A stretch of DNA of 52,419 nucleotides from Limosilactobacillus gorillae (GTDB lineage: Bacteria > Verrucomicrobiota > Kiritimatiellia > RFP12 > UBA1067). This document shows positions 14,453-43,428 of the stretch, one piece after another. The notes under the pieces are model-generated. The model ran no database searches, was not told the DNA's origin, and saw only the letters and a program-made list of their open reading frames with translations. Each line of letters opens with the position of its first letter. Positions within the stretch are counted from its first letter, which is position 1. Where the stretch lies: NCBI GenBank assembly GCA_963653155.1, contig CAVJWR010000002.1, positions 1 to 52,419 of the forward strand, given 5' to 3'. Both the position numbers and the translations under genes were made by a program.

Positions 14453-14466
14453 TCGCCCCTCCTTGC

Positions 14467-16974: not shown

Positions 16975-17027
16975 GCTCAAGTTCCTTTCCTAAAAGGCCT
17001 TTTTTCTCCCTTCAAAAATATTGCGCC

Positions 17028-17057: not shown

Positions 17058-17060
17058 CCG

Positions 17061-17088
17061 CTACCCACTGCCAACTACCCACTACCAA
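17061..17088. repeat. 14-bp tandem direct repeat x2 immediately after the rnhC stop
   Basis: ctacccactgccaa / ctacccactaccaa directly abutting the stop codon at 17089-17091. Confidence 0.5.
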
Positions 17089-20611: not shown

Positions 20612-21838
20612 TTACAGCATCTGCCTGAACTGGCCGAAGAGGTAGTCGGAATCGTGTGGTCCCGGACAGCTCTCCGGATGGTACTGCACCGAAAACGCAG
20701 GGAGAGTCCTATGCCGTACCCCCTCGATAGAGCCGTCGTTGAGGTTGATGTGGGTGACCTCAAGGCATGGCGGCACCGAATCCGGCAGAACCGCGAAGTT
20801 GTGGTTTTGGCTCGTGATCTCCACCTTGCCGGTCGCAAGGTTCTTTACTGGGTGGTTGCACCCATGATGTCCGAACGGAAGCCTCCCGGTCTTCGCTCCA
20901 CACGCGAGCGACAGCAACTGGTGTCCGAGACAGATGCCCATGATTGGGATTGGAGCGTGGGTTGCGTCCCTATCCGCATTGTATTTCAGGAGGCTCCTAA
21001 TGTTCTCGATCGCATAGCCGACCGCCGCCGGATCGGCCGGTCCGTTCGAAAGGAACACGCCGTCCGGCTCCATCGCAAGCACATCCTCAGCGGATGTCTT
21101 GGCCGCCACAACCGTCACTCGCGCAAATTTGGCAAGCGACCGAAGTATGTTCATCTTCACGCCGAAATCGTAGCAAACGACGTGGGGGTACTTGATTTTC
21201 TCACACGGAGGCACGGAGGCACGGAGTTTCTGATCTTCCGTCACTGGATTTTCTATTCTTTGCATCTCCGTGGCTCCGTGTGAGTCCACGAATTCATACG
21301 CCTTTTTGCAGCTCACACGACTGGCATAGTCCTGCCCGTCAAGACCTTCCCATGCCCGCGCCTTCTCAATCGCTTCCGACTCCGGCATTGCGCCGCCCGC
21401 CACATGCAGATACGCCTTCTGGTTGCCGAAATCGCGAATGTGGAGCGTCAGTGCCCTTACATCCACGCCATATATGCCAGGAACACCTGCATCTTTCAGA
21501 TACTTGTCAAGCGACGCCTTTGAGCGGAAATTTGACGCCTCCGTCAAATCGTTGACGACAAGCCCATGCAGAAAAAGACCCCGAGATTCCACATCCTCGG
21601 GGTTTGTTCCGTAATTTCCGACCTCTGCGGTGGTGAGGGCGACAATCTGCCCTGCGTATGATGGATCGGTCAAGATTTCCTGATAGCCGCTCATGCCCGT
21701 GTTGAACACGACCTCGCCTACCCGATCCACTTGCGCACCAAATGCCACGCCATGGAACACAGTCCCATCCGCCAACGCCAAGAACGCCGCCCGTTCGCGC
21801 TCCGCCTTCCACTTTGCTCTCAAGACATCATCGTTCAT
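20612..21838 (-). CDS. carA: Carbamoyl-phosphate synthase small (glutamine amidotransferase) subunit
   Basis: LADGTVFHGVAFGA...VVFNTGMSGYQEILTDPSYAGQIV at the N-terminus; the GATase triad context is GICLGHQLL and VQYHPE. The first ATG (21838) has AAGGAA upstream; the ORF-track start at 21856 is a TTG. Confidence 0.93.
   Translation of the reverse strand: MNDDVLRAKWKAERERAAFLALADGTVFHGVAFGAQVDRVGEVVFNTGMSGYQEILTDPSYAGQIVALTTAEVGNYGTNPEDVESRGLFLHGLVVNDLTEASNFRSKASLDKYLKDAGVPGIYGVDVRALTLHIRDFGNQKAYLHVAGGAMPESEAIEKARAWEGLDGQDYASRVSCKKAYEFVDSHGATEMQRIENPVTEDQKLRASVPPCEKIKYPHVVCYDFGVKMNILRSLAKFARVTVVAAKTSAEDVLAMEPDGVFLSNGPADPAAVGYAIENIRSLLKYNADRDATHAPIPIMGICLGHQLLSLACGAKTGRLPFGHHGCNHPVKNLATGKVEITSQNHNFAVLPDSVPPCLEVTHINLNDGSIEGVRHRTLPAFSVQYHPESCPGPHDSDYLFGQFRQML
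21196..21287. repeat. Palindromic CACGGAG element (family 1) lying in-frame inside carA
   Basis: Inverted arms ttttctcacacggaggcacggaggcacggag (21196-21226) and ctccgtggctccgtgtgagt (21266-21285). It is translated as DSHGATEMQRIENPVTEDQKLRASVPPCEKI in the CarA interdomain linker. Confidence 0.6.
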
Positions 21839-21994
21839 ATCAAGTTCCTTAAGCAACTTCCATGCCGTAAAGTAAATGCACCTAAAAAACCAAACAACCT
21901 TACACGTATTGTAAGCAATGGGCTACGACGCTTACACATTCTGCAAGCCACCCACCTCTCATCTAAGGATCAGAGTCTATTGATACACCTAATG

Positions 21995-22840
21995 CTAATG
22001 TAAGTGCAAAACCTTCGCGATTGTGGACGGAACAAGCCCGTCCCTCCCAAAAACGGCGAATCTTGGCAGTTTTGTGAAGATGCGGGAGGGACACGCTTGT
22101 CGTGTCCGAGGTTTTGCAATTGCCTCACACTGTATTGGCAATGCCACATCAGGCTCAAGCCGCTTACTCTTGCTATGGGACATAGTTGCGTGAGGTCGGC
22201 TTCGTTTCTTCTCGATTTTCTTCCGATCCACTACCGTCAGCTCAATCTGCCTGAATTTCGGATTCTCATAGAATACCGTTACCGCTGGGAACTGCGTTCC
22301 GAACTCGGAGTTGGCGCATCGAGCGATGCCAGACGCATCAAATTCAAACAACTGGAAGACCCAATGGTTGTGATCGCTCTTTTCGAACTTCTCGAAGAAG
22401 CTCGACAGGCGAAAATACGTCTTCCCTCCGACTTTTATCAGGTCAGACAGCTCTGCGCCATAACCACTGAAAACATTTTCCTTCCGTCCGCCCTTCCCGT
22501 CCGAGACAATGAAGTGGATAGTGTATCCGTCCGCATTCAGTCCGCAACCCATCCATGGAACGATGAACACGAAGTCTTCGACGCCATCGCCATTCAAGTC
22601 CAATCCTCCGCCTTCAGAATAGGATACACCACTTGGTTCCTCTTTCTCCAATGCGGTGACAAAGATACTCACGCTTTTCGACGGCAGCTTCCTGACAACC
22701 GCCGGCGTTGACTTGAACTCTGGCGCCCACTTTTCCATCCAAGCCTGCGCACATGGCGAGGCAAGAAGCACCGAAACCAGCAATCCACGCCCAAAACTCG
22801 CGAAATGGCCACGAGACCTATCGCTTTTCTCTTGCATCAT
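21995..22840 (-). CDS. Hypothetical secreted protein with an FG-GAP/calcium-loop-like DLNGDGVEDF motif; the C-terminus is encoded by a repeat element
   Basis: 281-aa ORF with AGGAGAAA as RBS and a signal-like N-terminus (GRGLLVSVLLASPCAQA). The last approximately 40-58 codons run through the palindromic repeat at 22005-22118. Confidence 0.55.
   Translation of the reverse strand: MMQEKSDRSRGHFASFGRGLLVSVLLASPCAQAWMEKWAPEFKSTPAVVRKLPSKSVSIFVTALEKEEPSGVSYSEGGGLDLNGDGVEDFVFIVPWMGCGLNADGYTIHFIVSDGKGGRKENVFSGYGAELSDLIKVGGKTYFRLSSFFEKFEKSDHNHWVFQLFEFDASGIARCANSEFGTQFPAVTVFYENPKFRQIELTVVDRKKIEKKRSRPHATMSHSKSKRLEPDVALPIQCEAIAKPRTRQACPSRIFTKLPRFAVFGRDGLVPSTIAKVLHLH
22005..22118. repeat. REPIN-like palindromic element, family 2, copy A
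   Basis: tgcaaaacc...ggacggaacaagcccgtcc-CTCCC-35 nt-GGGAG-ggacacgcttgtcgtgtcc...ggttttgca. It is about 80-90 percent identical by eye to the inverted copy at 45413-45522. Confidence 0.7.
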
Positions 22841-22866
22841 TTTCTCCTATGTGTTTATGACAACAT

Positions 22867-22875
22867 AGTATATCA
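22867..22875 (-). promoter_or_regulatory. Extended -10 box TGaTATACT upstream of the 22840 gene
   Basis: The minus strand reads TGATATACT, about 26 nt upstream of the ATG, followed by AGGAGAAA. Confidence 0.35.
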
Positions 22876-22912
22876 TTTTATGTTCATCCTAAACGCGGCA
22901 GTTGGAACTCGA

Positions 22913-23045
22913 TTTTCTCACACGGAGTGACGGAGATTGCCGACATACGCACAACTCTCGTTGTCTTTAACACAGAGGCACGAAGGCTCAGAGTCACAGA
23001 GCGGCTTTCAACATTCTTCTCCGTGCCTCCGTTTCTCTGTGTGAG
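22913..23045. repeat. Palindromic CACGGAG/CACAGAG element (family 1), intergenic full copy
   Basis: The left arm ttttctcacacggagtgacggag (22913-22935) has its first 15 nt identical to the carA copy. The right arm is cttctccgtgcctccgtttctctgtgtgag (23016-23045). An internal block reads cacagaggcacgaaggctcagagtcacagag. Confidence 0.6.
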
Positions 23046-23126
23046 CCAAAAACCTCGAAACAGACCTGAACACGACAAAGAAAACCTGAAGGTCTCTTTT
23101 CGCCAACCATTTCGCCGAGCATGGCA

Positions 23127-23230
23127 TTGTCGAGCTATTCTGCGAAAGGCACATCGCTGGGCATGCGCCAGTCTCCGCGCGGAGAAAGGTTTATGCTTCC
23201 AATCTTGGGTCCGCCGTCAGTCTGCTGACA
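23127..23230 (-). pseudogene. Relic 3' end of a nadE (NAD+ synthase) gene
   Basis: The minus strand translates to ..[27 protein letters not shown]-stop (stop at 23135-23137). The real NadE C-terminus is ..[26 protein letters not shown]-stop at 41419. The DNA match continues 8 nt past the stop (ttgtcgag vs ttgccgag). Confidence 0.7.
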
Positions 23231-23248
23231 AACGGAACTCCACCACTT

Positions 23249-24805
23249 CTACTCCACAAGCAGGGCCTGTCGCCAACTTGGGCGGACGTAGGGGCGGATG
23301 AGGTCGTTTGCCGCGCGGTCATCGAACGTGCGAGTTGCCGCGTCCCAGACGAGTGATCGATTCAGACGCTGCGACAGACAGCCGACAAGCATGCCTTCGA
23401 GAATCGAGACCGAATAGTCGATGTCGGAGAAGCAGCGGCTACCGCTTGGAAAAACCGGACCCTCGCCCTTGATCGCCGAACACAGCTCTGCGATGTGCGC
23501 CTTGTCCGTGTCGGCATAGAGGTCGGTCGTCGTGCCCTTCACACGCGGCAGATACGGTGTGACGACGCTTTCGCGGCATGCCTCGTGCACCTTCGTGTTC
23601 GTCGGCTCGGTCTCTCCGTTCATCAGCACGACGCAGTCGATGCCGTAGGCGTCGAGTGAGGCCAGCATGCCCTTCGTGCCGCAGATGATGCAGCCGCCTC
23701 GCGGCTCCTTGATCTTCGCGAGCGCGTCAATCATGGGCTTCAGCTTCGGCTCGGTCGGACGAATCCCGCCGTCGTACCACCAGACCGTCGTCTCGGGCAG
23801 CGTCACGCCCGGACGCGCCTTCGACGGACGCGCCGCGTAGACGAGCTTCACGCGACTTTTCATCGGATAAGCCACATCATTCCATTCGCACACCTCATCC
23901 ACCTCCGCCGTCTTCACGGACGCGAGTTCAGCCCCTCTGAACGGCAGATTCAGCGTGTGGCACGCCATGTCGCCGAAGGCCCCCGTTCCGAAATCATAGT
24001 ACGCACGCCAGTTGAACCGATGATAGACGCCGCGCAGGTTGCGCGCGTACTGGCTACGGAACGGCCAAGGCGTGTCAGCCGGACGATCCTGCACATACGG
24101 ACGATTCGAGGCGATGCCGAGCCAAGCGTCCCAGTCGAGCGTTTTCGGTGCCGGGATCATCCGTCCTGCCGCAAACCGCTTCGCCGTCGTGCCCTGAAAC
24201 CAGATCGGACGATCCGTCCAGACATAGACCTCCGAGACGTCGCCGATCACACCCTGCTGAAGGAGCTCGACATGCCGGCGATGCCCGTGCGCCGCCGACC
24301 CCTGATTGCCCATCTGCACGACGCGCCCTGTCTCGTGCGCGACACGACCGACGTAATCGGTCTCCCACAGCGTTCGGGCGAGCGGCTTCTGGATGTAGCA
24401 GTGGACACCCTCCTTCATCGCACGTACGGCCTGTGCGGCGTGCATGTGATCGGGCGTCGAGACGTTCACGACATCAAGACCAAGCTTTGCCTGATCGTCG
24501 AACATCCGGCGGTAGTCCGTGTACGTGCGCACGGACGACACGTCGACACCCGCCTTAACCAGATGCGCAAGCGCCGCGTCGATCATCGTGCGGTCAACGT
24601 CGCAGATCGCCGTCGGGATTTCCCCGTTGGCGAGGAACTTCGTCCAGTCCGTGAAGCCCTTGCCTCCCGCGCCGATGATGCCGAACTTAAGATGCTCGCC
24701 CCGCCACACGGCGCGTCCACAACTGAAGCCGGCGCAGCCGCCCAAGGCCGTTGTCGCGGACAATCCCCCGAATCCCTTGATGAACGTCCTTCTTGATGTC
24801 TTCAT
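23249..24805 (-). CDS. TAT-exported Gfo/Idh/MocA family NAD-dependent oxidoreductase (possibly GH109-like or a glycoside 3-dehydrogenase)
   Basis: Twin-arginine signal MKTSRRTFIKGFGGLSATTALGG, a Rossmann motif KFGIIGAGGKG, and STPDHMHA typical of Gfo/Idh/MocA. Confidence 0.9.
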   Translation of the reverse strand: MKTSRRTFIKGFGGLSATTALGGCAGFSCGRAVWRGEHLKFGIIGAGGKGFTDWTKFLANGEIPTAICDVDRTMIDAALAHLVKAGVDVSSVRTYTDYRRMFDDQAKLGLDVVNVSTPDHMHAAQAVRAMKEGVHCYIQKPLARTLWETDYVGRVAHETGRVVQMGNQGSAAHGHRRHVELLQQGVIGDVSEVYVWTDRPIWFQGTTAKRFAAGRMIPAPKTLDWDAWLGIASNRPYVQDRPADTPWPFRSQYARNLRGVYHRFNWRAYYDFGTGAFGDMACHTLNLPFRGAELASVKTAEVDEVCEWNDVAYPMKSRVKLVYAARPSKARPGVTLPETTVWWYDGGIRPTEPKLKPMIDALAKIKEPRGGCIICGTKGMLASLDAYGIDCVVLMNGETEPTNTKVHEACRESVVTPYLPRVKGTTTDLYADTDKAHIAELCSAIKGEGPVFPSGSRCFSDIDYSVSILEGMLVGCLSQRLNRSLVWDAATRTFDDRAANDLIRPYVRPSWRQALLVE

Positions 24806-24861
24806 CTTTTCTCTTCCTTCCGATTTTTCCGTTTGAAAACTTCTTTTCCGCCACGTTTCGC

Positions 24862-25638
24862 CTATCCGAGCGGGAACTGTTCAAGGAACCGCCGAGAATC
24901 AACTAGTGGCTGAAGCGAATCCGGCACCATTTCGGCCTCGACAAGGCACCACGGGATGCGTTCGGCGGCAACCTGTGCCATGACGGCACGCCAGGGGATG
25001 CACGGCCCACCATCTGTTGGGCGTTCGCCGAGCGTCGCCGTCGCAGACGGCGTGTTTTCCTTCAGGTGGATGGAGAAGTGGCGACCCGGAAATCTCTTCA
25101 GGAGCGCGACAACGTCCGTACCCGTGTGGAAGGTGTTGGAGGTGTCGACCTGCTGCTGCAGCAACGGCGACGTCTCGCGGAAGATGAGGTCCCAAGCAGT
25201 CACGCCGTCGTAGCGCGTCTCGAAATGGTGGTAGGTCGTGTGGACGCCAACCTTGATCCCGTAGGCGGCGGCAACCTCGGCGGCTCGTCCCATGTCCGCG
25301 CCAAATCGCCGATAGCCGTCCGCCGAGTCGCGCTTCGCGTGCGGTGTTGTCACGCTGAGGATGCCTGCCTCGGCGCAGATGTCAAGTGTGCGCTTCAGCT
25401 CGTCGCCGACGAGGAAGAGGTCACCGTTGACGTGTGTGCCGACACCGACCATCCCCGTGTTCGCAAGAATCCGCTTCAGTCCGATCGCCGAATGTCCGCC
25501 ATACTTCGCGAACTCAACACCGTCGTAGCCGACGGCCTTCAGGTCGGCAAGACACCGCTCCGGATCCTTCCAGATTAGGTCTCGAATGGAATAGAGCTGC
25601 ACGGCGAAGCGTGTGCCAGCGTCTTTTTTCTCGTTCAT
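24862..25638 (-). CDS. Sugar phosphate isomerase/epimerase (xylose-isomerase-like TIM barrel) family protein
   Basis: 258 aa with FAVQLYSIRD...GYDGVEF at the N-terminus and HTTYHHFE, HLKE metal-site-like motifs. No signal peptide. The start overlaps the upstream stop (ATGA). Confidence 0.85.
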   Translation of the reverse strand: MNEKKDAGTRFAVQLYSIRDLIWKDPERCLADLKAVGYDGVEFAKYGGHSAIGLKRILANTGMVGVGTHVNGDLFLVGDELKRTLDICAEAGILSVTTPHAKRDSADGYRRFGADMGRAAEVAAAYGIKVGVHTTYHHFETRYDGVTAWDLIFRETSPLLQQQVDTSNTFHTGTDVVALLKRFPGRHFSIHLKENTPSATATLGERPTDGGPCIPWRAVMAQVAAERIPWCLVEAEMVPDSLQPLVDSRRFLEQFPLG

Positions 25639-27038
25639 ATCGTCACATCCTTCTTGATAGGTTTACCAAGCTGTCCATTGAAGCCTCGCGGCCGCACCGC
25701 GAGCGTCGACATCCCCGCCGGGAAATACGATTTCGCGAGCGTCAGCGAGACAGGGCCAAGCGCACGGCGGATCGAGTTGCGGCAGTTGTAGTCTACTAGA
25801 TGCCGCGTGAAGCGCACAACGCCGTTCTGGGCACACGTGATCTCCCAGTCGAACGTACGCACGCCTACAATGCCCGTCGCCGCTGGGAACGTGCAGACAA
25901 CCGTCCCGCCGCGATCTACGACAGACAGCTCCGCACCGTCGGCAAATTCCGGTGCCGCATACGCGCACACGTTGTGTTCGGGCGCATACGGCCTGTCCGA
26001 CGTTGCGACGGGCAGGGGAATCACCCAGTCGTCGCCCAGCGTCTCGGCGTTGCGCAGGAAGTCGCGGCGCTCAAGGACGATCCGGTCGTCGAAGACCTCC
26101 GCCACCATCCCCTGCCGCGCCTCCCAAACGCCCTCGTATTTCGGCATCAGGCTGCCACGGATGTTCTCGTAGCCGTTCGCGCCGGTCGGACACTTGAAGT
26201 CTCCTGCGCAGAACCTGAGCGATGCCGTGCCGACCGACGTGAACGCCCCCTGCCAGATTGCCGACTCGTCCGTAAGTGGCGTGTGCGAGTGTCCCGAAAA
26301 CGCGACAGCGTTCGGAAAGTGTGAAAGGACGCGCGTCGCCGTCCCGTCGTCCGCACCCCAAGCGTGTCCGAGATGGCAGGTGTCCTTCGGATGCTGGTGC
26401 TGGATGTAAAAGAATGGACGCTCCCCCGCGAATTCCGCCGCATGCTCCGCGAAAAACGACTCGATTGCGGCGACGCCTTCCTTGTGGCCTGGCACCCAGT
26501 GCGCACCGACGAAGTGGTAGCCCTTCACGGTCTTTGTCCAGACCGGCGCATACGGCTCACGGAAGAAGTCTTCCCATGCGCTTGCCGGATCATTCGCGAT
26601 CACCTCGCGCGCGAAGGACGCCTTGTGCTCGTGGCGGCGCGCAAAGCCCCAGTTGTTGCAGCCTTCAAGGTCGTGGTTGCCGTAGACAAACAGCTTCTCG
26701 ACTTTTCGCCCGTCCGCCCCACGGTCGTCAGGGAAGACGGAATACCAGGCTTCCGCGACAATCTCCAGCTGATAACGCATGCCCGTGTCGGCCATGTCGC
26801 CCGCGATCACGACGCCATCGACGTTCCGTGCGCGGAAATAGGCGAGTGCCTTGACGAACGTGCGAGCATCGCCGAAGATGCGGAAGTCGCGTCGGGGCGC
26901 GTCGATGTGGAGATCCGAAAGAATGCCGAGACGCAGGTTCGGCGTTCCGGCGGCGAACAGTCCGGCCGGCGCGGCAAACGCGCGTCCCGCCGCGAACGCC
27001 CCGGCCCAGCAGATGAAATCCCGTCGACTTGTCTTCAT
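25635..27038 (-). CDS. TAT-exported calcineurin-like metallophosphoesterase
   Basis: The start is set at MKTSRRDFICWAGAFAAGRAFA (twin-arginine signal). Motifs include ILSDLHID, GDMAD, GNHD and GHSH. Confidence 0.8.
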   Translation of the reverse strand: MKTSRRDFICWAGAFAAGRAFAAPAGLFAAGTPNLRLGILSDLHIDAPRRDFRIFGDARTFVKALAYFRARNVDGVVIAGDMADTGMRYQLEIVAEAWYSVFPDDRGADGRKVEKLFVYGNHDLEGCNNWGFARRHEHKASFAREVIANDPASAWEDFFREPYAPVWTKTVKGYHFVGAHWVPGHKEGVAAIESFFAEHAAEFAGERPFFYIQHQHPKDTCHLGHAWGADDGTATRVLSHFPNAVAFSGHSHTPLTDESAIWQGAFTSVGTASLRFCAGDFKCPTGANGYENIRGSLMPKYEGVWEARQGMVAEVFDDRIVLERRDFLRNAETLGDDWVIPLPVATSDRPYAPEHNVCAYAAPEFADGAELSVVDRGGTVVCTFPAATGIVGVRTFDWEITCAQNGVVRFTRHLVDYNCRNSIRRALGPVSLTLAKSYFPAGMSTLAVRPRGFNGQLGKPIKKDVTI

Positions 27039-27064
27039 GTCTTGACCTTTCCCTTGCCAACGTT

Positions 27065-29233
27065 TCAACGACAAATGAGGAGGAATCCCAGCCGCCCCAT
27101 CGTGAGGGCGGCAGCCGGCGAATCACGCATCACCGTTTCCCCGCCCATACAGAAGCTCGCACGTACGGCCACGGCTACCGGCTCACGCGCATGCCGCCAG
27201 TTCGCAACGAACGCGCAGTTCGTCTCGTCCAGGACGGCTTTGCCGTTCCAGAGCCACTGGTACGCGGTGGCCGCCGGCGCGTAGGCCGAGAGCGTGACCG
27301 CACCATCGACGGACACGGCGGCGTTCGTCGGCGTTTCGAAGAATGGCCGCGCATCGTCGCCCCAACCGCAACCGCCCACGGCGAACGGGACGGTCGCCGC
27401 ACGTCCATCCGTGCGGATATCGCCGGTCACGACGTTCTTCAGGCCGATTCGCGTCGCGTCCCTGTAGGGTAGCCAATGCTGCTTGAGCACATCATCGTCA
27501 TAGACCCGACAGGCATAGAGGCGCATGTCCGCACGGTTGATCGTGCCGCTGAAGTCGGCCGTGTAGGGTTCGCCGAAGAGACCCATCAGCCACGTCGATG
27601 GCTTCGTTGCGCTGTCGATCGCATGCGTGTAGTTCGTGACCGTTCCCGTGATGAAGTGCATCTGCGCACGCTTCATGTCGAGAATCGCCGTGTGCCGCAG
27701 GAGATCGACCGCGACGCCTGTGTCGTAGCCGGGGAAACTGCCCACCATGTAGTCGCCAGCAGCGAAAGCGAAGTTGCCCGCGCCCGCCATCGTGCCGTTG
27801 CAGTAGAGCCCATAGACGAAGTCCGTCGCGCGCGTCGCGCCAAAGATCCGCTCCTGGCAGTTCGTGTGGCTGTTCAGTGCGAAATCGATCTCCACACGCG
27901 TATTGAGTCCCAGCGCACGGCTCGTGTTGATGATCTGGTCGCCGGTCGAGCGAAGGTGCGCACCATCGCTGCCGTCCGTGTCGATGTCGCCGCCGTATCG
28001 GAACGGACGCCCCTTCGGTGCGGGTGTGAGAAAGCCGCCGCCTTTTGCGTCAAGCAGTCCAGCCGCGCCGTGCCGTACTGCCGGACGGTAATCGCGGACG
28101 ATTTCGCCGCCTTCAAGGATGCGGAATGAGTAGACCTTCATCCGCGCGAGCAGGTAGCCGCTTCGCCCGTCCGCACCCAGCTGTCCGAAAAGGCCGAGTG
28201 TACGCGTCGCCTCGGTCGTCAGCGGCGAAAGCCCCTTGCGAACGACGGACACGCCCTGCTCCAGCAGTTCGCCTGTGGCGTTCGCGACGTCAAGGACGAC
28301 CGTCCGGCGCATCGCGTCAAAGCCCGTCCCGGACCAGATGCCCGACCAGGCGTCGCCGCACGAGAACGCGATGTTCGCGTCGCTTCCGTCTGGTGTGCCC
28401 GCGACGTAGACCGTCGTCGACGGCTCCTTGTCCGACTCGGCGGCGGAGAAGAGCCGTGCCTGAACCGTGCCGCTCGCGTTCACATGTGCGTTGACCGGCA
28501 CGAGCGCGTAGTCAAGCTCGAATCGCGAGGTCGGTTTCGCCCGATAGCCCGTATCGATGAACGAGGTACCGTCGGACGCAAGGTAGGCGTCCAGTTCCTC
28601 GACCGCGCCGCCAAACCGTAGCGTTGTCCCCACGATGCCGTTCGCGCAGAAGCCGCCGCCCACCGTATCGCGAAAGCCCGGTCGCCCGTCCTTGATCGCC
28701 GGCACACCCTGCATCACCAGTGTCTCGTCCTCGTAGACCCTGAAGCCGTAGATCCGCACATTGGCGAACAGTCCGAACGCCGTACCCGCCCCGTTCGACG
28801 CATAGCCGAAAGCGGCCAGTGGATAGTCGCTCGCCTCCGTCACGGCGAACGTCGCGACCGAAACGCCATTCGTTACGCCATCCGTAACGAGGTAGCCCTT
28901 CCCCGTTCGCGCGTCGCCAATCGCCAAATGCCGCGCCGTGTCAGCCTTGAGTGCCGTCGCATAGCCGCCAGCCGTCGCGCCGAACGAGAAGAGGCCATCC
29001 CCGTTGATGTACAGAGCCAGCTGTCCCTTGCCTGAGCTGACGCCGAAGACGCGCTGCTGCGTCGTCGTGTCCGTCAGGGCGAAATCGACCTCCCAGCGCG
29101 TCGTCGGCGTCATCTTCCGACCAAGCGAAATCGCCTGCGTGCCTGTTGCCTCGATGAAGCCGTCTTCCGCCAAAGCCGACACTGCCGCCAGCATCAGCAG
29201 CCCGACCGCAAACATGAGTTTTCGTCGCTTCAT
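27065..29233 (-). CDS. Secreted protein with three approximately 190-aa jellyroll-like modules of uncharacterised type plus a C-terminal Ig-like domain
   Basis: Signal peptide MKRRKLMFAVGLLMLAAVSALA. The three modules open with FIEATGTQAISLG..RWEVDFAL, YLASDGTSFIDTGY..RFELDYAL and HLRSTGDQIINTS..RVEIDFAL. They close with R(I/V)Y.FR(V/I)... or RLY.CRV.. followed by ..GG. Confidence 0.75.
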   Translation of the reverse strand: MKRRKLMFAVGLLMLAAVSALAEDGFIEATGTQAISLGRKMTPTTRWEVDFALTDTTTQQRVFGVSSGKGQLALYINGDGLFSFGATAGGYATALKADTARHLAIGDARTGKGYLVTDGVTNGVSVATFAVTEASDYPLAAFGYASNGAGTAFGLFANVRIYGFRVYEDETLVMQGVPAIKDGRPGFRDTVGGGFCANGIVGTTLRFGGAVEELDAYLASDGTSFIDTGYRAKPTSRFELDYALVPVNAHVNASGTVQARLFSAAESDKEPSTTVYVAGTPDGSDANIAFSCGDAWSGIWSGTGFDAMRRTVVLDVANATGELLEQGVSVVRKGLSPLTTEATRTLGLFGQLGADGRSGYLLARMKVYSFRILEGGEIVRDYRPAVRHGAAGLLDAKGGGFLTPAPKGRPFRYGGDIDTDGSDGAHLRSTGDQIINTSRALGLNTRVEIDFALNSHTNCQERIFGATRATDFVYGLYCNGTMAGAGNFAFAAGDYMVGSFPGYDTGVAVDLLRHTAILDMKRAQMHFITGTVTNYTHAIDSATKPSTWLMGLFGEPYTADFSGTINRADMRLYACRVYDDDVLKQHWLPYRDATRIGLKNVVTGDIRTDGRAATVPFAVGGCGWGDDARPFFETPTNAAVSVDGAVTLSAYAPAATAYQWLWNGKAVLDETNCAFVANWRHAREPVAVAVRASFCMGGETVMRDSPAAALTMGRLGFLLICR

Positions 29234-31416
29234 TGTGCTGTCCTTTCCTGTGCGTGTTCCAGTCGTGAAAGTTCAAGCGCGTCCACGCGGACGGCCCGCA
29301 TTCCAGAGAGTCCCGAAAGCGCACCGCGCACGTCGAGCTTGTACCCGACCGCCGGCACGAACGTGCCCAAGTCAATCCAGTCCCACTCCACCGAAACCTC
29401 AGACGCGGCGACTTCGCGCCGAAAGCGCACCTGCGCGTCCTTGACGACAACCGTCAGTACCGCATCGCCGCCGTCAGCCCGCCGTTCGCCCTTCGCATGG
29501 ATGCGGAGACGCAACAGCACGTTCGGATCGAACGCAAGGTCGTCGAGAAAGAACCGAATCGCGTCCTGCCCGTCACGCGGATAGACTTCGACGGCCTGTC
29601 CACCGAATGCCGTCGGATCATCAACGCACCGTGCGTGATAGCCGTGGCGCTCGTTCCACTCGCCGCCCGTGTAGTCTCCATCGCGTACGCAGAAGTCAGC
29701 CGTCTCAATTCGCGCACAGGTCGCGGCTGCGACGGGGCGATGCGTCCGCATACGCGCAAGCCGACGGCGCATCCACGCATCCTGTCCGCGCTGGAGCGCG
29801 AAATGGAGCGGCACGCCACGCGCGGCGGCGGCAGCGCGAATCGACGCCTCTTCCGCCAGCAATGCGTCAAGCCCGTGCGGACGCGCAAAGCGTTTGGGAT
29901 GCGCCGTCACGGAATGCGTCGGAGCAAAGCAGGCGAGGCGATTCAACAACGCGACGACCGTCGGATATTTCGCGAGGCGCACGGCGAAGCGGGCATCGGG
30001 GTCGTCTCGCGTCGCCCGCTCGGCGGCTTCCCACAGACCGAGCGAGACGCGCAGGAAACCGTCAGGGAACGTCTTCGGATCATCTTCGCCGCCATAGGTC
30101 AGCACGGCTTCTGGATTATGCGCGAGCTGCCCTCGCGCGAGATCATAGGCCGCGCGCACATGCGGGGCGCCGGCCCCGTAGGCTCCACGGCAGAAGCGAT
30201 CGACAAGTTCGTCCGTGGACTGGTCGGGATTCCACATCAGCTTCGCGAGCACCCAGCACCGCAGGTCGCCGAAATCGCCACCCGGCAACGGCTGACCGTC
30301 CATGTAGACGTATTTCGCGCCTCGGTCACGGTAGTAGCGCAAGTTCGGGCCGTATACCGTGATGTTCGGATGCGGCAGGAAGAACCAGCGGAAGTTCGGC
30401 GTGTAGTCCCACTGGTAGATCCGCTCCGTTCCCGATGTCCACGCCTCGTAGGCACGCTTCCACGCGACGTTCTTCGGACGCGCCGCCGTCGCAAGCGGCT
30501 CGGCGTAGTCCGCCGCCGTGCAACAGCAGACGATCACGTTACGGCGCGGGCGTACCGTCTTCGGCGGCTTGAAGGTCTCGCCATAGGCGATGGTCTCGAC
30601 GAGCAGATCCGGGCGAACGCGTTCGATGCGTTCGGCGACAGCGTTCACAAACCGCAAGACGGGGCCGGCACGAGAACCTTCATCGGCGAATATCTCGCGA
30701 CACGTGGCACATTCGCAGAAGTTGCCCCAGTCCATCTGCGAGACGCCAACGACACGACAGCCGGGATCGGCCGCCGCCAAGGCCAGTGCATTCGACGCGG
30801 CGACATCCACGACCTCTGGATTCGAGAGGCAGAGCTGCGTCGATTCCGAGATGCGTCGTCCATCGATCTCGCTGAACCATTCGGGATGCGCGGCGAAATG
30901 GCGTTCGGGCGGCACGAGCGTGAGGAAGGTGTGCGACGTGTAGAGGCGACGAGCAAAGCGCAACGGACAGCCCCCATACTTAGGATCGGGATTCGGCACC
31001 GCGCCATCGGGACTCTCGCCGTTCAGGCGGCATCGTGCGGCAAAAAGCTGATTCGTGCGGACGCCATACCACGACGGCTGTCGCAGTTCGAAGGCGGGAC
31101 GCTCTGTAATTGACGTGCCGTCCGGCACGACCAGTTTCGCGCGACGGGGCACGACCGTCCGCCACGGCGCGTACCAGCCGCATCCGCCGAAGCGTTCCAG
31201 CAATTCGTAGACGCCATAAAGTGCACCGCGCGGCGATTCGCCCGCGATGGTGACGATGCCGTTCGTCGCGCGGATCGTGAAGCCGTCGCCCGTGCCATCC
31301 CCGGCCGTGACGACGAACGCACCCGGTTCGGGACGCGCCCCGGTCATCCGCTCGACGTGGCGGTCGAGTTCCTCTTGCGCGAACAGCGCGGCGAAAAGGA
31401 CAAGGGCGGCGATCAT
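29230..31416 (-). CDS. DUF4838 domain-containing glycoside-hydrolase-like protein
   Basis: The N-terminal EELDRHVERMTG...GALYGVYELLERFGGCGWYAPW pattern is typical of DUF4838 proteins. 728 aa. It has a short uncharged hydrophobic N-terminus and ATGA overlaps at both ends. Confidence 0.75.
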   Translation of the reverse strand: MIAALVLFAALFAQEELDRHVERMTGARPEPGAFVVTAGDGTGDGFTIRATNGIVTIAGESPRGALYGVYELLERFGGCGWYAPWRTVVPRRAKLVVPDGTSITERPAFELRQPSWYGVRTNQLFAARCRLNGESPDGAVPNPDPKYGGCPLRFARRLYTSHTFLTLVPPERHFAAHPEWFSEIDGRRISESTQLCLSNPEVVDVAASNALALAAADPGCRVVGVSQMDWGNFCECATCREIFADEGSRAGPVLRFVNAVAERIERVRPDLLVETIAYGETFKPPKTVRPRRNVIVCCCTAADYAEPLATAARPKNVAWKRAYEAWTSGTERIYQWDYTPNFRWFFLPHPNITVYGPNLRYYRDRGAKYVYMDGQPLPGGDFGDLRCWVLAKLMWNPDQSTDELVDRFCRGAYGAGAPHVRAAYDLARGQLAHNPEAVLTYGGEDDPKTFPDGFLRVSLGLWEAAERATRDDPDARFAVRLAKYPTVVALLNRLACFAPTHSVTAHPKRFARPHGLDALLAEEASIRAAAAARGVPLHFALQRGQDAWMRRRLARMRTHRPVAAATCARIETADFCVRDGDYTGGEWNERHGYHARCVDDPTAFGGQAVEVYPRDGQDAIRFFLDDLAFDPNVLLRLRIHAKGERRADGGDAVLTVVVKDAQVRFRREVAASEVSVEWDWIDLGTFVPAVGYKLDVRGALSGLSGMRAVRVDALELSRLEHAQERTAQ

Positions 31417-32195
31417 CGGTCGGTATCGATCTTCGAGAGATCGCCATTGATGGTGATGCCGCCATCCGCGACAAGGATGGCACCGTTCAGGTAGGACGAC
31501 TCGTCCGACGCGAGAAAGAGCGCGATCTTCGCGATTTCCTCAGGCGTGCCATAGCGGCGGAGCGGCGTGCGGAGCTTGAGGAACCGCTCCTCGTCGAAGG
31601 TCGAGTCCGACGGATTCGACTGGCGCATCATCGGCGTCAGGATCGCAGCCGGCGAGATCGCGTTCGTGCGGACATTGTAGCGGCCGTACTCGACGGCCAG
31701 CGACTTCGTGAGCTGAACGATCGCGCCTTTCGTCGCCGTGTAGGCATCACAGTCCGGAATGCCGATCTGCGCGGCGGACGAGCCGGTGTTGATGATCGAT
31801 CCGCCATGTCCCGACGCAATCATCGTCGGAATCGAATACTTCGCGAACAGGTAGACCGACTTCAGGTTGATGTCGATCACGCGATCCCAGTCGGCCACGG
31901 CAATGTCCGTGATGCGCCCATCGTGCCCCGTCCAGAAGATGCCCGCGTTGTTGTAGAGGACGTCCACCGTCCCCGCCGCCTTGACGACGGCCTCCACGTC
32001 CGCCGCCTTCGAGACGTCGCAGGGCACGAACGTCGCACCAATTTCGGCGGCGGCCGCCGCGCCCTTCGTCGCATTGACATCCGCAAGGAACACCCGCGCT
32101 CCCTCGGACGCAAACAGCCGCGCTCCCTCGAAGCCAATGCCCTGGGCACCACCCGTGACAATGGCAGTCTTCCCTTCCAGTCGTTTCATTTTCAT
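31413..32195 (-). CDS. SDR family NAD(P)-dependent oxidoreductase
   Basis: The start is at MKMKRLEGKTAIVTGGAQGIG (AAGGAG upstream) with a YxxxK site (YTATKGA) and NAG motif. The 415-aa ORF extension is Arg-rich junk overlapping the MFS gene. Confidence 0.9.
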   Translation of the reverse strand: MKMKRLEGKTAIVTGGAQGIGFEGARLFASEGARVFLADVNATKGAAAAAEIGATFVPCDVSKAADVEAVVKAAGTVDVLYNNAGIFWTGHDGRITDIAVADWDRVIDINLKSVYLFAKYSIPTMIASGHGGSIINTGSSAAQIGIPDCDAYTATKGAIVQLTKSLAVEYGRYNVRTNAISPAAILTPMMRQSNPSDSTFDEERFLKLRTPLRRYGTPEEIAKIALFLASDESSYLNGAILVADGGITINGDLSKIDTDR

Positions 32196-33526
32196 TTTCT
32201 CCTTCCTTCCGCAAACCAACGTTCGATTTCCTCCAAGGTCTTGCCCTTCGTTTCGGGCATGTAAAGATGGACTGTCAGGTAATAGACAACCGTGCAGGCA
32301 GCGAATCCCAGGAACAGCCAGCCGTAGCCGATGCGCCCGACCAACGGCAACAGCGTAGACTGAAGCCCTGTCGCGACGCCCTGGTTCGCCATGAGGGACA
32401 CGCCCATGCCGACAGCCCGAATGCGGCGCGGCATGAGTTCGGTCAGTGCCAGCCACACACAGACGCCCGGCCCCACGCAGAATGATGAAATGAAAACGAC
32501 GAGCGTGGCGAGCACCGCCCAGCCCGTCATGGGCGAAGCCGTGACAAGTCCACGCTCCAGTGCCATCATGAGAACGCCCGCAACGGCCATCGAGCCAATG
32601 ATGCCGCGCGTACCGAGTTCCAGCAGGAAGACGCGTCCCTTTCGGTCTACCAGTGCGCACGCTACAGCCGTCATCGCGAGCATCGCGACCTTGAGGCAGA
32701 CATCCGCAACGTGGATCGCGTGCAGGGAAAGCCCGGCTTCGCGGAAGATCGTCGTCGTATAGCCGAGGACGACGTTGATGCCTGTCGCCTGATTGCAGGC
32801 GAGAACCGTGAAGGCGATCGCGAACGGCACGAGATATTTGCGCTGCAGCAGAGGCTCATTCACGGGCGGAACAGCGGAGACAACCGTGTCGTGCGCAGGG
32901 CGCGGCCTCCAGGCGGGCGACTCCTTCAGGAACAGGCCCGCAACGAAGACAGCCGCAGAAAGACCTCCTACGAGGCCGAAGACGGTACGCCAGCAACGCG
33001 TCTTCGCCACCGCGTCAAGTGTTGGCGAATCCGCTGGACCGACCACCAGCGCAAGCGCCAGCCCGATCAGTCCGGACGCGAGAATGCCGCCGATCATCAC
33101 GAGCTGAAAAAAGCCCGCGCCACGTCCACGAATCTCCTTGGGCAGCGTTTCGGCAATGTACAGCGGCGTGACGACCGCGATGACGCCCATGCCGCAGCCC
33201 TGTAGCAGGATGCCCGCATAGAGTGCCGCGAAGCTTGCGTCCGACAGCGCCGCGAGAGAGGACCCTGCCGCAAAGAACAGTGTTCCCAGGAGAAATGTTC
33301 GCTTCCGCCCGAACCAGTCGCTCAGCGCTCCGGCGACGAAGTTGACGCAGACCGACCCCAACAGACAGCCGCCGACCAGCAGGGAAAGCCGTGAGGCGCC
33401 GAACGTTGTCGTCGCCTCTATGTAGGGTTTGGCAATCGACATCTCGCCGTTGGCCCCGAGTCCGTAGAGGACTCCTGCCAACCCCGACAACGCGAGGAAA
33501 TAGGCGAGATATCGCTTGTCCATCAT
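32192..33526 (-). CDS. MFS transporter, sugar porter family
   Basis: 444 aa and about 12 TM segments, with GALSDWFGRKR (the MFS loop 2-3 motif), PKEIRGRG, and a C-terminal PETKGKTLEEIE characteristic of sugar porters. Confidence 0.9.
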   Translation of the reverse strand: MMDKRYLAYFLALSGLAGVLYGLGANGEMSIAKPYIEATTTFGASRLSLLVGGCLLGSVCVNFVAGALSDWFGRKRTFLLGTLFFAAGSSLAALSDASFAALYAGILLQGCGMGVIAVVTPLYIAETLPKEIRGRGAGFFQLVMIGGILASGLIGLALALVVGPADSPTLDAVAKTRCWRTVFGLVGGLSAAVFVAGLFLKESPAWRPRPAHDTVVSAVPPVNEPLLQRKYLVPFAIAFTVLACNQATGINVVLGYTTTIFREAGLSLHAIHVADVCLKVAMLAMTAVACALVDRKGRVFLLELGTRGIIGSMAVAGVLMMALERGLVTASPMTGWAVLATLVVFISSFCVGPGVCVWLALTELMPRRIRAVGMGVSLMANQGVATGLQSTLLPLVGRIGYGWLFLGFAACTVVYYLTVHLYMPETKGKTLEEIERWFAEGRRK

Positions 33527-33536
33527 TCGTTCCCCA

Positions 33537-34466
33537 TCAGCCCTTCAGGGCCTCCAAGATTGCCTTCTTGATGCCCGTCGGTCCAATTCCGTACTCTTCG
33601 CAGAGCCACCGTTGGCTACCGATCTTCGTGACGTAGACATCGGGTAGGCCGAGCCGCTTCAGACGGCAGCTGACGCCCGCGTCCATCAGCACTTCGGACA
33701 CCGCCGAGCCGACGCCTCCTGAGAGATTGTGCTCCTCAACGGTGATGATCGTGCCGGTTTCCCGTGCGGCTCGGACGATTGCCTCGCGGTCGATCGGCTT
33801 GATCGAGTAGAGCGAGACGAGACGGCACGAGATGCCCTGTTCGCGCGCAAGCTCCTCGACGGCCCGCTTGGCGTCCACGCCGATCGTGCCGGCGAAGAAC
33901 ACTGTCGCGTCCTTGCCGTCGCGAATCTGCGATGAGCCGCCGATGCGGAAGTCCTCGACTTCGCGTCCATCATGGAGGTCGGGTTCGTTCTTGTAGCCGC
34001 AACGGAAGTAGACCGGCCCTCGGTAGGCCATCATCGCCCGTGTCGCCGCGCGCGTCTCGGCACCGTCGGACGGCACGAGGACGACCATGTTCGGAAGAGC
34101 ACGCATGATGGCGATATCCTCCGTCGAGTGGTGGCTCATTCCGAGCTCGCCGTAGGCGACACCGCCGCCGATGATGACGATCTTCACGTCCGCATCATGG
34201 TAGCAGACATCGTTGCGGATCTGCTCCAGGCAACGCAGGGTCGGGAAGTTCGCGATCGAGTAGGTGATCGCCGTGTTGCCCTCCATCGCGACACCGCACG
34301 CGACGCCCGTCATCTCCTGCTCGGCGACGCCACAGTTGATGAAGCGGTCCGGATAGGCGTTCGCGAACGGCTCGATCTCGCCATAGCCGATGTCCGCAAG
34401 GATCATGTAAACGTTCTTGCGCTCCGCCGCGATCTTGAGGAGTTCCTGGTTGAATATCTTTCTCAT
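33537..34466 (-). CDS. Transketolase, C-terminal (pyrimidine-binding) subunit
   Basis: 309 aa with ADIGYGE...CGVAEQEMTGVA... and the layout of a split transketolase B subunit. Confidence 0.93.
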   Translation of the reverse strand: MRKIFNQELLKIAAERKNVYMILADIGYGEIEPFANAYPDRFINCGVAEQEMTGVACGVAMEGNTAITYSIANFPTLRCLEQIRNDVCYHDADVKIVIIGGGVAYGELGMSHHSTEDIAIMRALPNMVVLVPSDGAETRAATRAMMAYRGPVYFRCGYKNEPDLHDGREVEDFRIGGSSQIRDGKDATVFFAGTIGVDAKRAVEELAREQGISCRLVSLYSIKPIDREAIVRAARETGTIITVEEHNLSGGVGSAVSEVLMDAGVSCRLKRLGLPDVYVTKIGSQRWLCEEYGIGPTGIKKAILEALKG

Positions 34467-34467
34467 G

Positions 34468-35289
34468 TCACATCGCCTCCACTTCTGCCTTGGCCTTCAG
34501 GTACAGATCCTCGACGAGTCCGCCGTAATGCCACTTGTAGTCGTTCTCCATGAACGAGACTCCCTTGCCCTTCACTGTGCGAAAGATGACGGCGCTCGGC
34601 TTGCCCGCCTCTAGCGGCAGGTTCGCGAGAGCCGTCTCGATCGCCTGCGGATCGTGTCCATCGGCCTCGATCGCCTTCCAGCCGAACGCCTCAAGCTTCG
34701 GCCCGAGCGGTTCCAAATCAATGATGTCCTTTGAGTTTCCGAGCGCCTGCAGGCGGTTGTAGTCGACGAGCATCGTCAGGTTGTCGTAATGATGCTGTCC
34801 CGCGAGCATGATCGCCTCCCAGCTCGATCCCTCGTTGAGGTCGCCATCCGAGCTCATCACGAAGACACGATGCTTCGCGCCGTCGCGCTTCGCCGCCATC
34901 GCCATGCCGCACGCGACGGGCAGACCGTGGCCGAGGGAACCCGTCGAAAACTCGACGCCGGGTATGTGGTGCGAGATGTGTCCAGAGAGCTTGCCGTCGT
35001 CGCAGTAGTAGCGGTCAAGCCAGTCCAGCGGAAAGAATCCGCACTCCGCGAGACAGGCGAGCAACGCCGCGCCGCCGTGCCCCTTCGAGAGCAGGAAGCG
35101 GTCTCGTTCGGGCCACTTTGGATTCTTCGGATCGACCTTAAGTATCTTTCGGTAGAGAACCGGATAGATGTCGGCCGTCGAGAGCATCGAACCGATGTGG
35201 CCCGACTTTCCGTGAAACACCATCTTTAGCGTGTGGAGGCGTATCCGCTTGGCGAGCGCCTTCATCTCCGCGATTTCTTGAGCATTCAT
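34468..35289 (-). CDS. Transketolase, N-terminal (TPP-binding) subunit
   Basis: 273 aa with SGHIGSMLS, LSKGHGG and SSDGDLNEGSSWEA (the TPP/Mg site). There is a 1-nt gap to the C-terminal subunit gene. Confidence 0.93.
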   Translation of the reverse strand: MNAQEIAEMKALAKRIRLHTLKMVFHGKSGHIGSMLSTADIYPVLYRKILKVDPKNPKWPERDRFLLSKGHGGAALLACLAECGFFPLDWLDRYYCDDGKLSGHISHHIPGVEFSTGSLGHGLPVACGMAMAAKRDGAKHRVFVMSSDGDLNEGSSWEAIMLAGQHHYDNLTMLVDYNRLQALGNSKDIIDLEPLGPKLEAFGWKAIEADGHDPQAIETALANLPLEAGKPSAVIFRTVKGKGVSFMENDYKWHYGGLVEDLYLKAKAEVEAM

Positions 35290-35379
35290 GTTAGCCTATT
35301 TCCTTTCACGCCGCAAAGCATAGCACATGCATTCGGCATCAAAGTCGTCTCTGCGCGTTTATCTCGAACTTTATGCGCT

Positions 35380-35388
35380 ATTCTACCA
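35380..35388 (-). promoter_or_regulatory. Extended -10 box TGgTAGAAT for the transketolase-led operon
   Basis: The minus strand reads TGGTAGAAT, about 90 nt upstream of ATG 35289. It is divergent from the regulator promoter at 35437. Confidence 0.35.
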
Positions 35389-35436
35389 CAAACAGGCGCT
35401 TCCTGCGTCCATCTGCGAGCGCGGATGGTGTGAATG

Positions 35437-35445
35437 TGGTATAAT
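35437..35445 (+). promoter_or_regulatory. Extended -10 box TGgTATAAT exactly 7 nt upstream of the regulator ATG (leaderless arrangement)
   Basis: tgTGGTATAATgcgcggcATGaaacac. There is no room for an SD, and the predicted TSS coincides with the A of ATG 35453. Confidence 0.45.
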
Positions 35446-35452
35446 GCGCGGC

Positions 35453-38822: not shown

Positions 38823-38823
38823 G

Positions 38824-40200: not shown

Positions 40201-40227
40201 TAGCCTGTTCTCCTTTTGATGGCCCAT

Positions 40228-40236
40228 ATGATACCA
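40228..40236 (-). promoter_or_regulatory. Extended -10 box TGgTATCAT for the dehydrogenase/antiporter/kinase operon
   Basis: The minus strand reads TGGTATCAT, 27 nt upstream of ATG 40200, followed by AAAAGGAGAA. Confidence 0.35.
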
Positions 40237-40277
40237 TTCCGGCGTGAGAAAGGTCATTGTAAATTTTTCGCGCTTTC

Positions 40278-40307
40278 TTGCATTTTTCATCCGGCCTATG
40301 CTATACT
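40278..40307 (+). promoter_or_regulatory. Sigma70-type promoter TTGCAT-N18-TGcTATACT, 7 nt upstream of the regulator ATG (leaderless arrangement)
   Basis: cTTGCATttttcatccggcctaTGcTATACTttcagccATG. It has the same 7-nt geometry as the paralogous regulator at 35453. Confidence 0.5.
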
Positions 40308-40314
40308 TTCAGCC

Positions 40315-41376: not shown

Positions 41377-41418
41377 GCGAAAATAAGGAGGCTACGGCTT
41401 GCTACAGTCGTTGCCGAG

Positions 41419-43368: not shown

Positions 43369-43428
43369 AAATGCATCACCAGCACTTCCCGTGCCAATCA
43401 AACCACATCGCAAAGCCGCATTGCCATT

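Follow-up and report, generated by a model that had tools for sequence, protein, structure and literature searches.

Between core genes lie integration hotspots, the content of which is exchanged through homologous recombination. An island enclosed by a duplicated gene 3' end presents a textbook footprint, and both integrase-less islands and homology-anchored acquisitions have already been described. In the case of e14, which is inserted in icd, deletion between the two copies rebuilds a chimeric, functional gene, whereby the copies differ mainly by synonymous changes and icdC constitutes a C-terminal pseudogene (PMC13626634). Cis-mobilizable elements (CIMEs) are islands without integration or transfer genes that have kept attL and attR (PMC6323972). 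For displaced 3' ends in the type VI secretion system (T6SS) of V. cholerae and in Rhs arrays, homology-facilitated illegitimate recombination (HFIR; defined in PMC3240628) has been proposed (PMC5361080). Here we analyzed a stretch of 52,419 nt (contig CAVJWR010000002.1 of assembly GCA_963653155.1; in the following "the window"), in which the 3' end of nadE, the gene for glutamine-dependent NAD+ synthetase, occurs twice and encloses an 18-kb block of carbohydrate-related genes. The block is most probably a horizontally acquired carbohydrate-utilization island, whose insertion point lies 14 nt past the nadE stop codon and which entered the lineage of the window only. Specific to this case are the target nadE, the uncultured Kiritimatiellia host, the cleanly defined junctions, and the series of relatives with an empty site.

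The original prediction, which was made from the letters of the window alone, had proposed a direct repeat of the nadE 3' end of about 85 nt with 85-90% identity. A repeat search of the window located this repeat at 23127-23213 and 41411-41497 (87 nt, 87% identical, same orientation), and a BLAST search with the distant copy, here called the relic, against the window yielded 87.4% identity over 87 nt with 11 mismatches, 0 gaps, and E = 2.5e-26. All remaining BLAST matches of the relic region in the window had E > 0.005, and the pair is the sole long-range repeat of such size there. The copies and their parent gene are:

41419..43413, minus strand: nadE, glutamine-dependent NAD+ synthetase, intact; open reading frame (ORF) of 664 codons with the Pfam domains CN_hydrolase and NAD_synthase
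41405..41501, minus strand: real copy of the duplicated unit, comprising the final 26 codons of nadE, its stop codon (41419-41421), and the following 14 nt
23121..23220, minus strand: relic copy of the duplicated unit, with the coding relic at 23135-23218, its stop codon at 23135-23137, the replacements V>I and H>P, and a 3-nt insertion

If one 3-nt indel (GGC) is allowed, base-by-base reading extends the duplicated unit to ~97-100 nt, up to a common CTGAC. On the 5' side in nadE sense, CTGAC is followed by GG in both copies, whereby the relic adds the GGC insertion at this place; BLAST of the relic against the relative L005 likewise extends to 23220. On the 3' side, the real copy is homologous to the relatives up to 14 nt beyond the stop codon, with homology to L006 and L007 stopping at 41405. 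The agreement of 7/8 nt between the copies past the stop codon, which had also been claimed before, was found as described. The relic encodes the C-terminal NadE peptide (27 residues and a stop codon, minus strand 23135-23218), the counterpart in NadE being 26 residues and a stop codon at 41419, and a degenerate pattern of this peptide matched the window twice, where 0 matches are expected by chance. The longest identical runs between the copies are 23 nt and 17 nt, both inside the 87 nt of 87% identity, which would agree with an old att pair without being peculiar to one. Within the coding part of the real copy every difference from the relatives is synonymous. With the nadE 3' ends of L005 and L006 the relic shares 90% identity, and its homology runs on leftwards into the spacer that lies downstream of nadE in the relatives. 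It adjoins this ancestral spacer without a break and thus represents a displaced resident 3' fragment that is contiguous with the old flank. That the duplication is real is virtually beyond doubt, and in all likelihood the relic is non-functional. The nadE product itself is 100% identical to P0001, the shorter protein on record for the window, and its C-terminus is identical to those of P0002-P0005; the public record probably uses a start codon at 43344 or 43368.

Judging by NadE homologues, the window belongs to an uncultured Kiritimatiellia lineage, whereby the relatives are 94, 92, 91, 90, 87, 82, and 80% identical. The nearest relatives of the block come from ruminal metagenome-assembled genomes. 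An empty site is present in five independent relatives (L005, L006, L007, L008/L009, and L098; NadE identity 80-94%), where nadE runs straight into relic-side spacer sequence. This is the block-free arrangement which the original prediction had suggested looking for. The two features on the far side of the relic are:

21857..23120, minus strand: ancestral nadE-carA spacer, now 18 kb away from nadE, with copies of palindromic repeats and an ORF of 281 aa (21995-22840) without Pfam domain
20612..21856, minus strand: carA (Pfam), the conserved neighbor beyond the empty site, with orthologues 1-2.3 kb downstream of nadE in L005, L007, and L008/L009

Pieces of the spacer are homologous to the DNA downstream of nadE in L005, L006, L007, L008, and L098. 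The gene order in L005 (NadE 91%) is nadE, ParE/RelB, two small ORFs, carA, pyrG, a phosphoribosyltransferase gene, and RNase HII, and L098, which was obtained from a metagenome scan, follows the same pattern. In L007 (NadE 92%) nadE is followed by a 170-aa ORF and carA, and in L008/L009 (NadE 80%) the order is P-II, Amt, nadE, small ORFs with RelB, carA, pyrG, and carB. The closest relative, L006 (NadE 94%), has MFP, AcrB, P-II, Amt, and nadE in common with the window at 92-97% DNA identity; past the nadE stop codon its sequence matches the window at 23112 and then at 22979-22909, which is the DNA left of the relic. In BLAST searches the nadE 3' end of the relatives matches both copies in the window, whereas their downstream spacer matches only the DNA adjoining the relic. 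Since the empty sites occur across lineages of 80-94% NadE identity, the block is by parsimony an insertion in the lineage of the window, and the continuity with the old downstream flank identifies the relic as the copy left at the ancestral side. Overall, we consider it very probable that the block is a lineage-specific insertion.

In the window the nadE-end segment has 2 copies, and 12 relative loci contain 1 copy apiece, invariably at the end of nadE. It is thus not a multicopy repeat, a point that the original prediction had wanted to see checked. A scan of viral contigs for the encoded peptide gave 0 matches, a metagenome scan with a 37-nt core returned just two ordinary nadE ends, and neither a second copy nor another element was found at the nadE 3' end in the 12 relative loci, which are a limited sampling.

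Several further observations concern the nadE-carA interval. In the relatives it holds toxin-antitoxin genes (L005 2535-3256 and L008 9711-10016), either ParE/RelB or RelB alone. A predicted lipoprotein of 170 aa in this interval is ~90% identical between L007 and L008, though the NadE proteins of these two are 92% and 80% identical to that of the window. Within the 281-aa ORF of the window spacer, the segment 22147-22527 (minus strand) has its counterpart in a 103-aa ORF of L008/L009 (90.7% identity), while in the same loci the nadE DNA is only 65-79% and the CarA protein 79% identical to the window. The segment is absent from L005 and L007 and probably represents a small accessory gene that is swapped between lineages.

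The content of the block agrees with what the original prediction had listed for it, namely a nine-gene operon, a second operon with dehydrogenase and kinase genes, and two AraC regulators, as judged by Pfam:

23221..41404, no strand: inserted block, 18,184 nt, GC content 63.2%, absent from L005, L006, L007, L008/L009, and L098
23249..35289, minus strand: nine-gene operon (Pfam)
35327..36613, plus strand: AraC-type regulator 1 (AraC1) with Peripla_BP_3 and HTH_18; a 53% identical orthologue lies beside TktN-TktC-MFS in L011
36574..40200, minus strand: second operon with an alcohol-dehydrogenase-like gene (ADH), an MFS transporter gene, and a PfkB sugar kinase gene (Pfam)
40315..41376, plus strand: AraC-type regulator 2 (AraC2), convergent with nadE, the two stop codons being 42 nt apart; P0121 is the window's own product of 353 aa

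The nine-gene operon encodes TktN, TktC, an MFS sugar transporter, an SDR protein, a DUF4838 protein, a 722-aa protein of unknown function, a metallophosphoesterase, a xylose-isomerase-like TIM barrel protein, and a GFO/IDH/MocA oxidoreductase with TAT signal (GFO). The 722-aa protein has no Pfam domain and gave only a weak Ig-like match in the PDB. The composition check that had been recommended likewise sets the block apart. Its GC content of 63.2% compares with 54.8% in the left flank (17.0-23.2 kb) and 57.0% in the right flank (41.4-52.4 kb), and all insert genes have 60-66% GC, as opposed to 56-57% for nadE, carA, and pyrG. The GC3 ranges of insert and flank genes overlap, so that the composition is supportive, not conclusive.

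Parts of the block also occur in other genomes. In the locus L091 the nine operon genes are all present in unchanged order (GFO 84% identical), with an AAA_14/DUF4143 gene behind them instead of a nadE relic. There, the nine-gene operon has 63.2% GC and the DNA after it 55.2%, and thus the operon is GC-rich relative to its surroundings in a second genome too. In L094 (GFO 86%) the operon runs on into a GH20 and an MFS gene, and L011 contains AraC1, TktN, TktC, and MFS. The single close relative in a scan of genome contigs with the MFS transporter of the block was L011 (74%), which is truncated by the end of its contig; the further 79 loci represent distant paralogues. ADH and AraC2 are found together in L096 at 88% DNA identity, where the homology ends 6 nt past the AraC2 stop codon (41382) and the next 42 nt are not nadE, and in L099 and L100 they adjoin an alanyl-tRNA-synthetase-like gene. 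An ORF of 170 aa at the start of L100 was considered as a counterpart of the one that follows nadE in L007 and L008; this was rejected, as the two are unrelated. Overall, the modules of the block occur elsewhere in differing contexts, their homology ends at gene ends, and no nadE fragment accompanies them. Since these parts occur in separate contexts, two or more ordinary chromosomal modules make up the block, which is thus composite and not a recurring element with fixed ends.

Between the duplicated units and the genes of the block two short stretches of filler sequence are located:

23221..23272, minus strand: left junction filler, 52 nt, which replaces the last two GFO codons and the stop codon and provides a new 7-codon tail, RQALLVE, with a stop codon at 23249
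41377..41404, plus strand: right junction filler, 28 nt, between the AraC2 stop codon and the real copy, containing AAGGAGG (41385-41391) and a TTG 7 nt later

The GFO orthologues all end with ..PY[VI]RxGWEF and a stop codon. The window copy follows this pattern to the Trp codon (23273) and then ends with ..SWRQALLVE, and since it departs after the Trp codon, the operon-derived DNA ends two codons before the native end. A remote alignment of the new tail to the native ..GWEF end was too weak and was not used. The AAGGAGG and TTG in the right filler may be the start of a donor gene that was cut by the junction. Neither filler had a match in the window or in the 101 fetched loci, and L096 has unrelated sequence at the position of the right filler. 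At the relic joint the common CTGAC is present, but filler follows instead of clean microhomology. A truncated GFO gene and unmatched fillers would be typical of illegitimate joints rather than of a defined element end. As a separate observation, the relic is in the same frame as GFO and parted from it by a lone TAG at 23249-23251 (minus strand 23135-23251; 114 nt, 38 codons). Readthrough of this codon would add a NadE-derived tail to GFO, whereby the random chance of a shared frame is 1/3.

The ends of the insert carry no significant inverted or direct repeat (11% of shuffles score equally). In a Pfam search of all ORFs, inside the block as well as in the remaining window, domains of integrases, recombinases, transposases, relaxases, or phages were absent, and the block contains no transfer gene, so that the earlier statement that such genes are lacking between the repeats stands. 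The largest non-coding gap in the insert measures ~115 nt by coordinates and is the divergent ADH/AraC2 promoter region. As no gap exceeds this length, there is no room for a decayed integrase gene. Two other origins of the repeated unit were considered and rejected. An RNA gene is not involved, since ARAGORN and Rfam gave no tRNA, tmRNA, or Rfam family in the window. A transposon or insertion sequence does not apply either, as there is no transposase and no terminal inverted repeat, and the duplication comprises ~100 nt rather than a short target-site duplication.

Compared with e14 in icd, the locus shows the same kind of insertion at the 3' end of a housekeeping enzyme gene, where a replacement 3' end keeps the gene intact and the displaced end is left as a short pseudogene in direct orientation, with few and mostly synonymous changes between the copies, and both repeats derived from the target 3' end and an unoccupied site in relatives are present here as well. 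In contrast to e14, which encodes its own integrase and excises upon SOS induction, the block has no recombinase, purely metabolic cargo, and one end within a cargo gene. Its modules are also found in other genomes with different flanks and not, as for an e14-type element, with the same ends. In form, the block resembles CIMEs in being an island bounded by direct repeats from a gene 3' end without integration or transfer genes (PMC6323972), the repeats here being at most putative recombinase substrates. However, CIMEs are recognized by a cognate integrative and conjugative element (ICE) or integrative and mobilizable element (IME) on the same att site, and none was found at nadE in the 12 relative loci or in the viral contigs; moreover, the repeats here are ~100 nt at 87% identity and not short identical cores. 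The locus also resembles HFIR, or "C-terminal displacement", as known from Rhs, CdiA, and T6SS effector-immunity arrays, in which a conserved segment with new cargo enters through a homology anchor and an illegitimate other end, and an orphan resident 3' fragment remains downstream (PMC5361080, PMC3240628). In those arrays, though, the duplicated segment is part of the toxin gene being swapped, whereas here the housekeeping terminus is merely the anchor and the cargo an 18-kb catabolic block. Finally, the nadE-carA interval is a variable hotspot. As in other hotspots, its content differs in every relative examined (ParE/RelB, the 170-aa lipoprotein ORF, small ORFs, or the block), and the flanking core gene is mosaic. 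Hotspot replacement by a double crossover in flanking genes leaves no duplication, however, and the relic thus indicates that the event was not a simple double crossover.

The sequences of the two copies, compared with the relatives, differ at 12 sites. In the real copy, CGT and AGT are private changes, and an AAA is otherwise present only in L008; all three are synonymous. The relic has the private changes CCC, ATT (two changes, V>I), and CCT (H>P) in addition to its 3-nt insertion, and it has GAT and AAT in common with L008. Three of the differing sites are polymorphic among close relatives, namely CCA/CCC, the stop codon TAA/TAG, and G/A after the stop codon. At and after the stop codon, the haplotype of the real copy is that of L006 and L001 (TAAC.CGGCAACG), and the haplotype of the relic is that of L008 and L007 (TAGCTCGACAATGCC, 15/15 with L008). 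This pattern is suggestive of a descent of the copies from different alleles, as would be expected if one of them came with the incoming DNA. As a rough clock, 3-4 private changes at ~33 free sites of the real copy predict ~10 changes in a neutral 87-nt relic, where 7-8 plus an indel are observed. Given these counts, the relic could be a neutral sequence that dates back roughly to the separation of the window from the L006 lineage, and the event would be old. The nadE gene itself (41419-43368, aligned with L006 6649-8583) is a mosaic, with 95-99% identity in columns 600-1125, 77-81% in columns 1500-1650, and ~90% at the end. This mosaic structure relative to the closest relative indicates that homologous recombination inside nadE is frequent among co-occurring lineages. 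Substitutions private to the window are not enriched toward the nadE 3' end, so that no donor tract can be delimited.

In our view, the footprint at the nadE end fits homology-anchored recombination at least as well as integrase-mediated integration. That the block entered independently of an integrase, by recombination anchored on nadE homology, is the most likely mechanism, although as a proposition we regard it as evenly balanced; it is favored by the empty sites, the GC contrast, the composite cargo, the lack of mobility genes, the illegitimate-looking junctions, and the mosaic nadE. The incoming DNA would have stemmed from a related Kiritimatiellia strain and would already have borne a nadE 3' end beside the block. 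It might have been a linear fragment with a nadE 3' part followed by the block, which underwent a homologous crossover within nadE, while an illegitimate joint connected its other end to recipient DNA ~80 nt before the resident stop codon, as in HFIR. Alternatively, a circular fragment carrying a nadE 3' segment might have integrated by a single (Campbell) crossover of the RecA type. Both routes would yield an A-B-block-B'-C structure, both would require a donor in which the block already adjoined nadE, and in neither would a dedicated integrase be at work. Thereafter, the copy joined to the nadE body would have been under selection, and the copy beside the old spacer would have become a dead, neutrally decaying relic. 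The island would now be fixed and immobile, save for rare events in which the repeats recombine and the resulting deletion restores a single nadE.

Several points weigh against such a homology-anchored entry. The donor arrangement, nadE followed by AraC2 without a relic, was not found, the nearest AraC2 and GFO orthologues being located in other contexts. Classical HFIR joints usually show microhomology and not 52 nt of filler. The haplotype argument draws on 3-5 unconstrained sites, at which homoplasy is easy, and the spacer has exchanged DNA separately with an L008-like lineage (22147-22527). Furthermore, an 87-nt repeat of 87% identity with an identical core of 23 nt is also what would be expected of an old att duplication of the e14/icd type. 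Finally, natural competence or another transfer route of this uncultured host would have to be assumed.

The last but one of these points leads to the explanation that a site-specific integrative element, either of the e14/icd type or similar to a CIME, has decayed into the present block. Here, an attP with a replacement nadE 3' end would have been recombined by a tyrosine or serine recombinase, the integrase would have been lost later or would have acted in trans, and the repeats would be the remaining attL and attR. The geometry is exactly that of e14 in icd, where the gene is completed by the element-side copy and a C-terminal pseudogene lies at the far end (PMC13626634), and CIMEs offer a precedent for an island that has its att sites but no integration or transfer genes (PMC6323972). 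The empty sites, the 23-nt perfectly identical core, and the variation of the nadE-carA interval among relatives (ParE/RelB or the 170-aa lipoprotein ORF), as at an integration hotspot, would fit as well. However, the 18.2 kb lack an integrase, an excisionase, a relaxase, and any pseudogene remnant, and they have no non-coding gap above ~115 nt in which one could have decayed. The block ends within cargo genes or at most 28 nt from them, with GFO truncated at one end, and the same operons exist elsewhere without a nadE fragment. In addition, the 12 relative nadE loci hold no second copy or element at the site, and the viral contigs gave 0 matches for the peptide. We therefore regard a decayed element as unlikely, though a possibility to be taken seriously. 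The original prediction had read the repeats as the att-like borders of an island acquisition; of this, the lineage-specific and compositionally distinct insertion holds up, whereas the repeats are not established as att sites, given the ordinary operons elsewhere without nadE fragments, the truncated GFO gene, and the lack of room for an integrase gene. A bolder version, in which the nadE terminus of rumen Kiritimatiellia is a recurrent attachment site for integrase-less cargo islands that are moved in trans by an unrecognized recombinase or ICE, appears quite improbable. If it were true, the nadE-carA interval would be an exchange cassette site and the block one captured example.

It could also be that the duplication arose in situ. 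In this case, a staggered break or fork in the nadE terminus would have been mended by illegitimate, replication-associated repair that attached both ends of a linear piece of foreign DNA, whereby ~100 nt of the recipient became duplicated and the copies then diverged in place. Both junctions do look illegitimate, with their fillers and the truncated GFO gene, no donor with nadE-block adjacency was found, and the rough clock is self-consistent (~10 changes predicted, 7-8 plus an indel observed). But a duplication of ~100 nt is far longer than usual for break repair or transposition, the copies carry different population alleles and not private mutations at the three polymorphic sites, and the real copy and the relic have no common derived change relative to L006, which makes this scenario rather improbable. 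It is very improbable that the relic is the remnant of an ancient nadE paralogue or tandem duplication unrelated to the block, with the relatives having lost both the block and the extra copy. Although recombination between two nadE copies would recreate the single-copy arrangement of the relatives, independent losses would be needed in at least four lineages spanning 80-94% NadE identity; besides, just ~100 nt are left, their sharp ends coincide with the block borders, and the block is compositionally unlike its flanks and has its parts elsewhere. A chance similarity or a dispersed multicopy repeat unrelated to the island borders can be regarded as refuted. Other repeat families do sit at the left border, as the original prediction had pointed out, but the match has E = 2.5e-26, lies in frame and collinear with the NadE C-terminus, and is present in 2 copies in the window and 1 copy in each of the 12 relative loci, always at the nadE end.

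These other repeats are of several kinds. A palindromic element of ~63 nt at 21189-21289 lies in frame within carA, in the linker between the two CarA domains. Its arms CTCACACGGAGGCACGGAG are located at 21200-21218 (plus strand) and 21266-21284 (minus strand), and it adds ..TEMQRIENPVTEDQKLRASVPPC.. to the protein. It is present in the window and in L007 and absent from L005 and L008; as RNA it has a folding energy of -41.7 kcal/mol (z = -5.1), and it is reminiscent of the palindromic elements that lie in frame in Rickettsia. The same 19-mer family has additional copies at 22917-22935 and 23027-23045, in the nadE-carA spacer just left of the relic, and at 12181-12199, and part of the element also occurs downstream of nadE in L006 and L008. 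The members of a second family, at 22007-22100 and 45420-45521 in inverted orientation, each form a pair of GC-rich hairpins (GGACGGGACAAGCCCGTCCCTCCC ... GGGAGGGACGCGCTTGTCGCGTC), similar to repetitive extragenic palindromic (REP) sequences or miniature inverted-repeat transposable elements (MITEs); the first lies at the 3' end of ORF 21995-22840 and the second in the intergenic region between P-II and AcrB. The direct repeat families D1-D5 (764-1616, 261-nt period) are explained by ribosomal protein S1, whose S1 domains are arranged in tandem (Pfam: six S1 stretches). Apart from these repeats, a second variable block is located at 10625-17103, with DUF4874/DUF4832, pectate-lyase-like, and 837-aa unknown protein genes, which are glycan-related and have 60-65% GC. 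Its genes have no counterpart at the DNA level in L005, where a single 572-aa gene sits between RNase HII and htpG.

The locus reveals no new class of element. It shows that the duplication of a gene 3' end, which is often taken as an att footprint, can arise without a mobility gene, and this calls for caution with automated callers of islands and att sites. With long-read metagenomes, it offers a concrete test of integrase-independent acquisition. For the biology of these bacteria, it presents a cleanly delimited case in which an uncultured Kiritimatiellia lineage of the gut or rumen has gained a whole glycan-catabolic module, consisting of two operons and two regulators.

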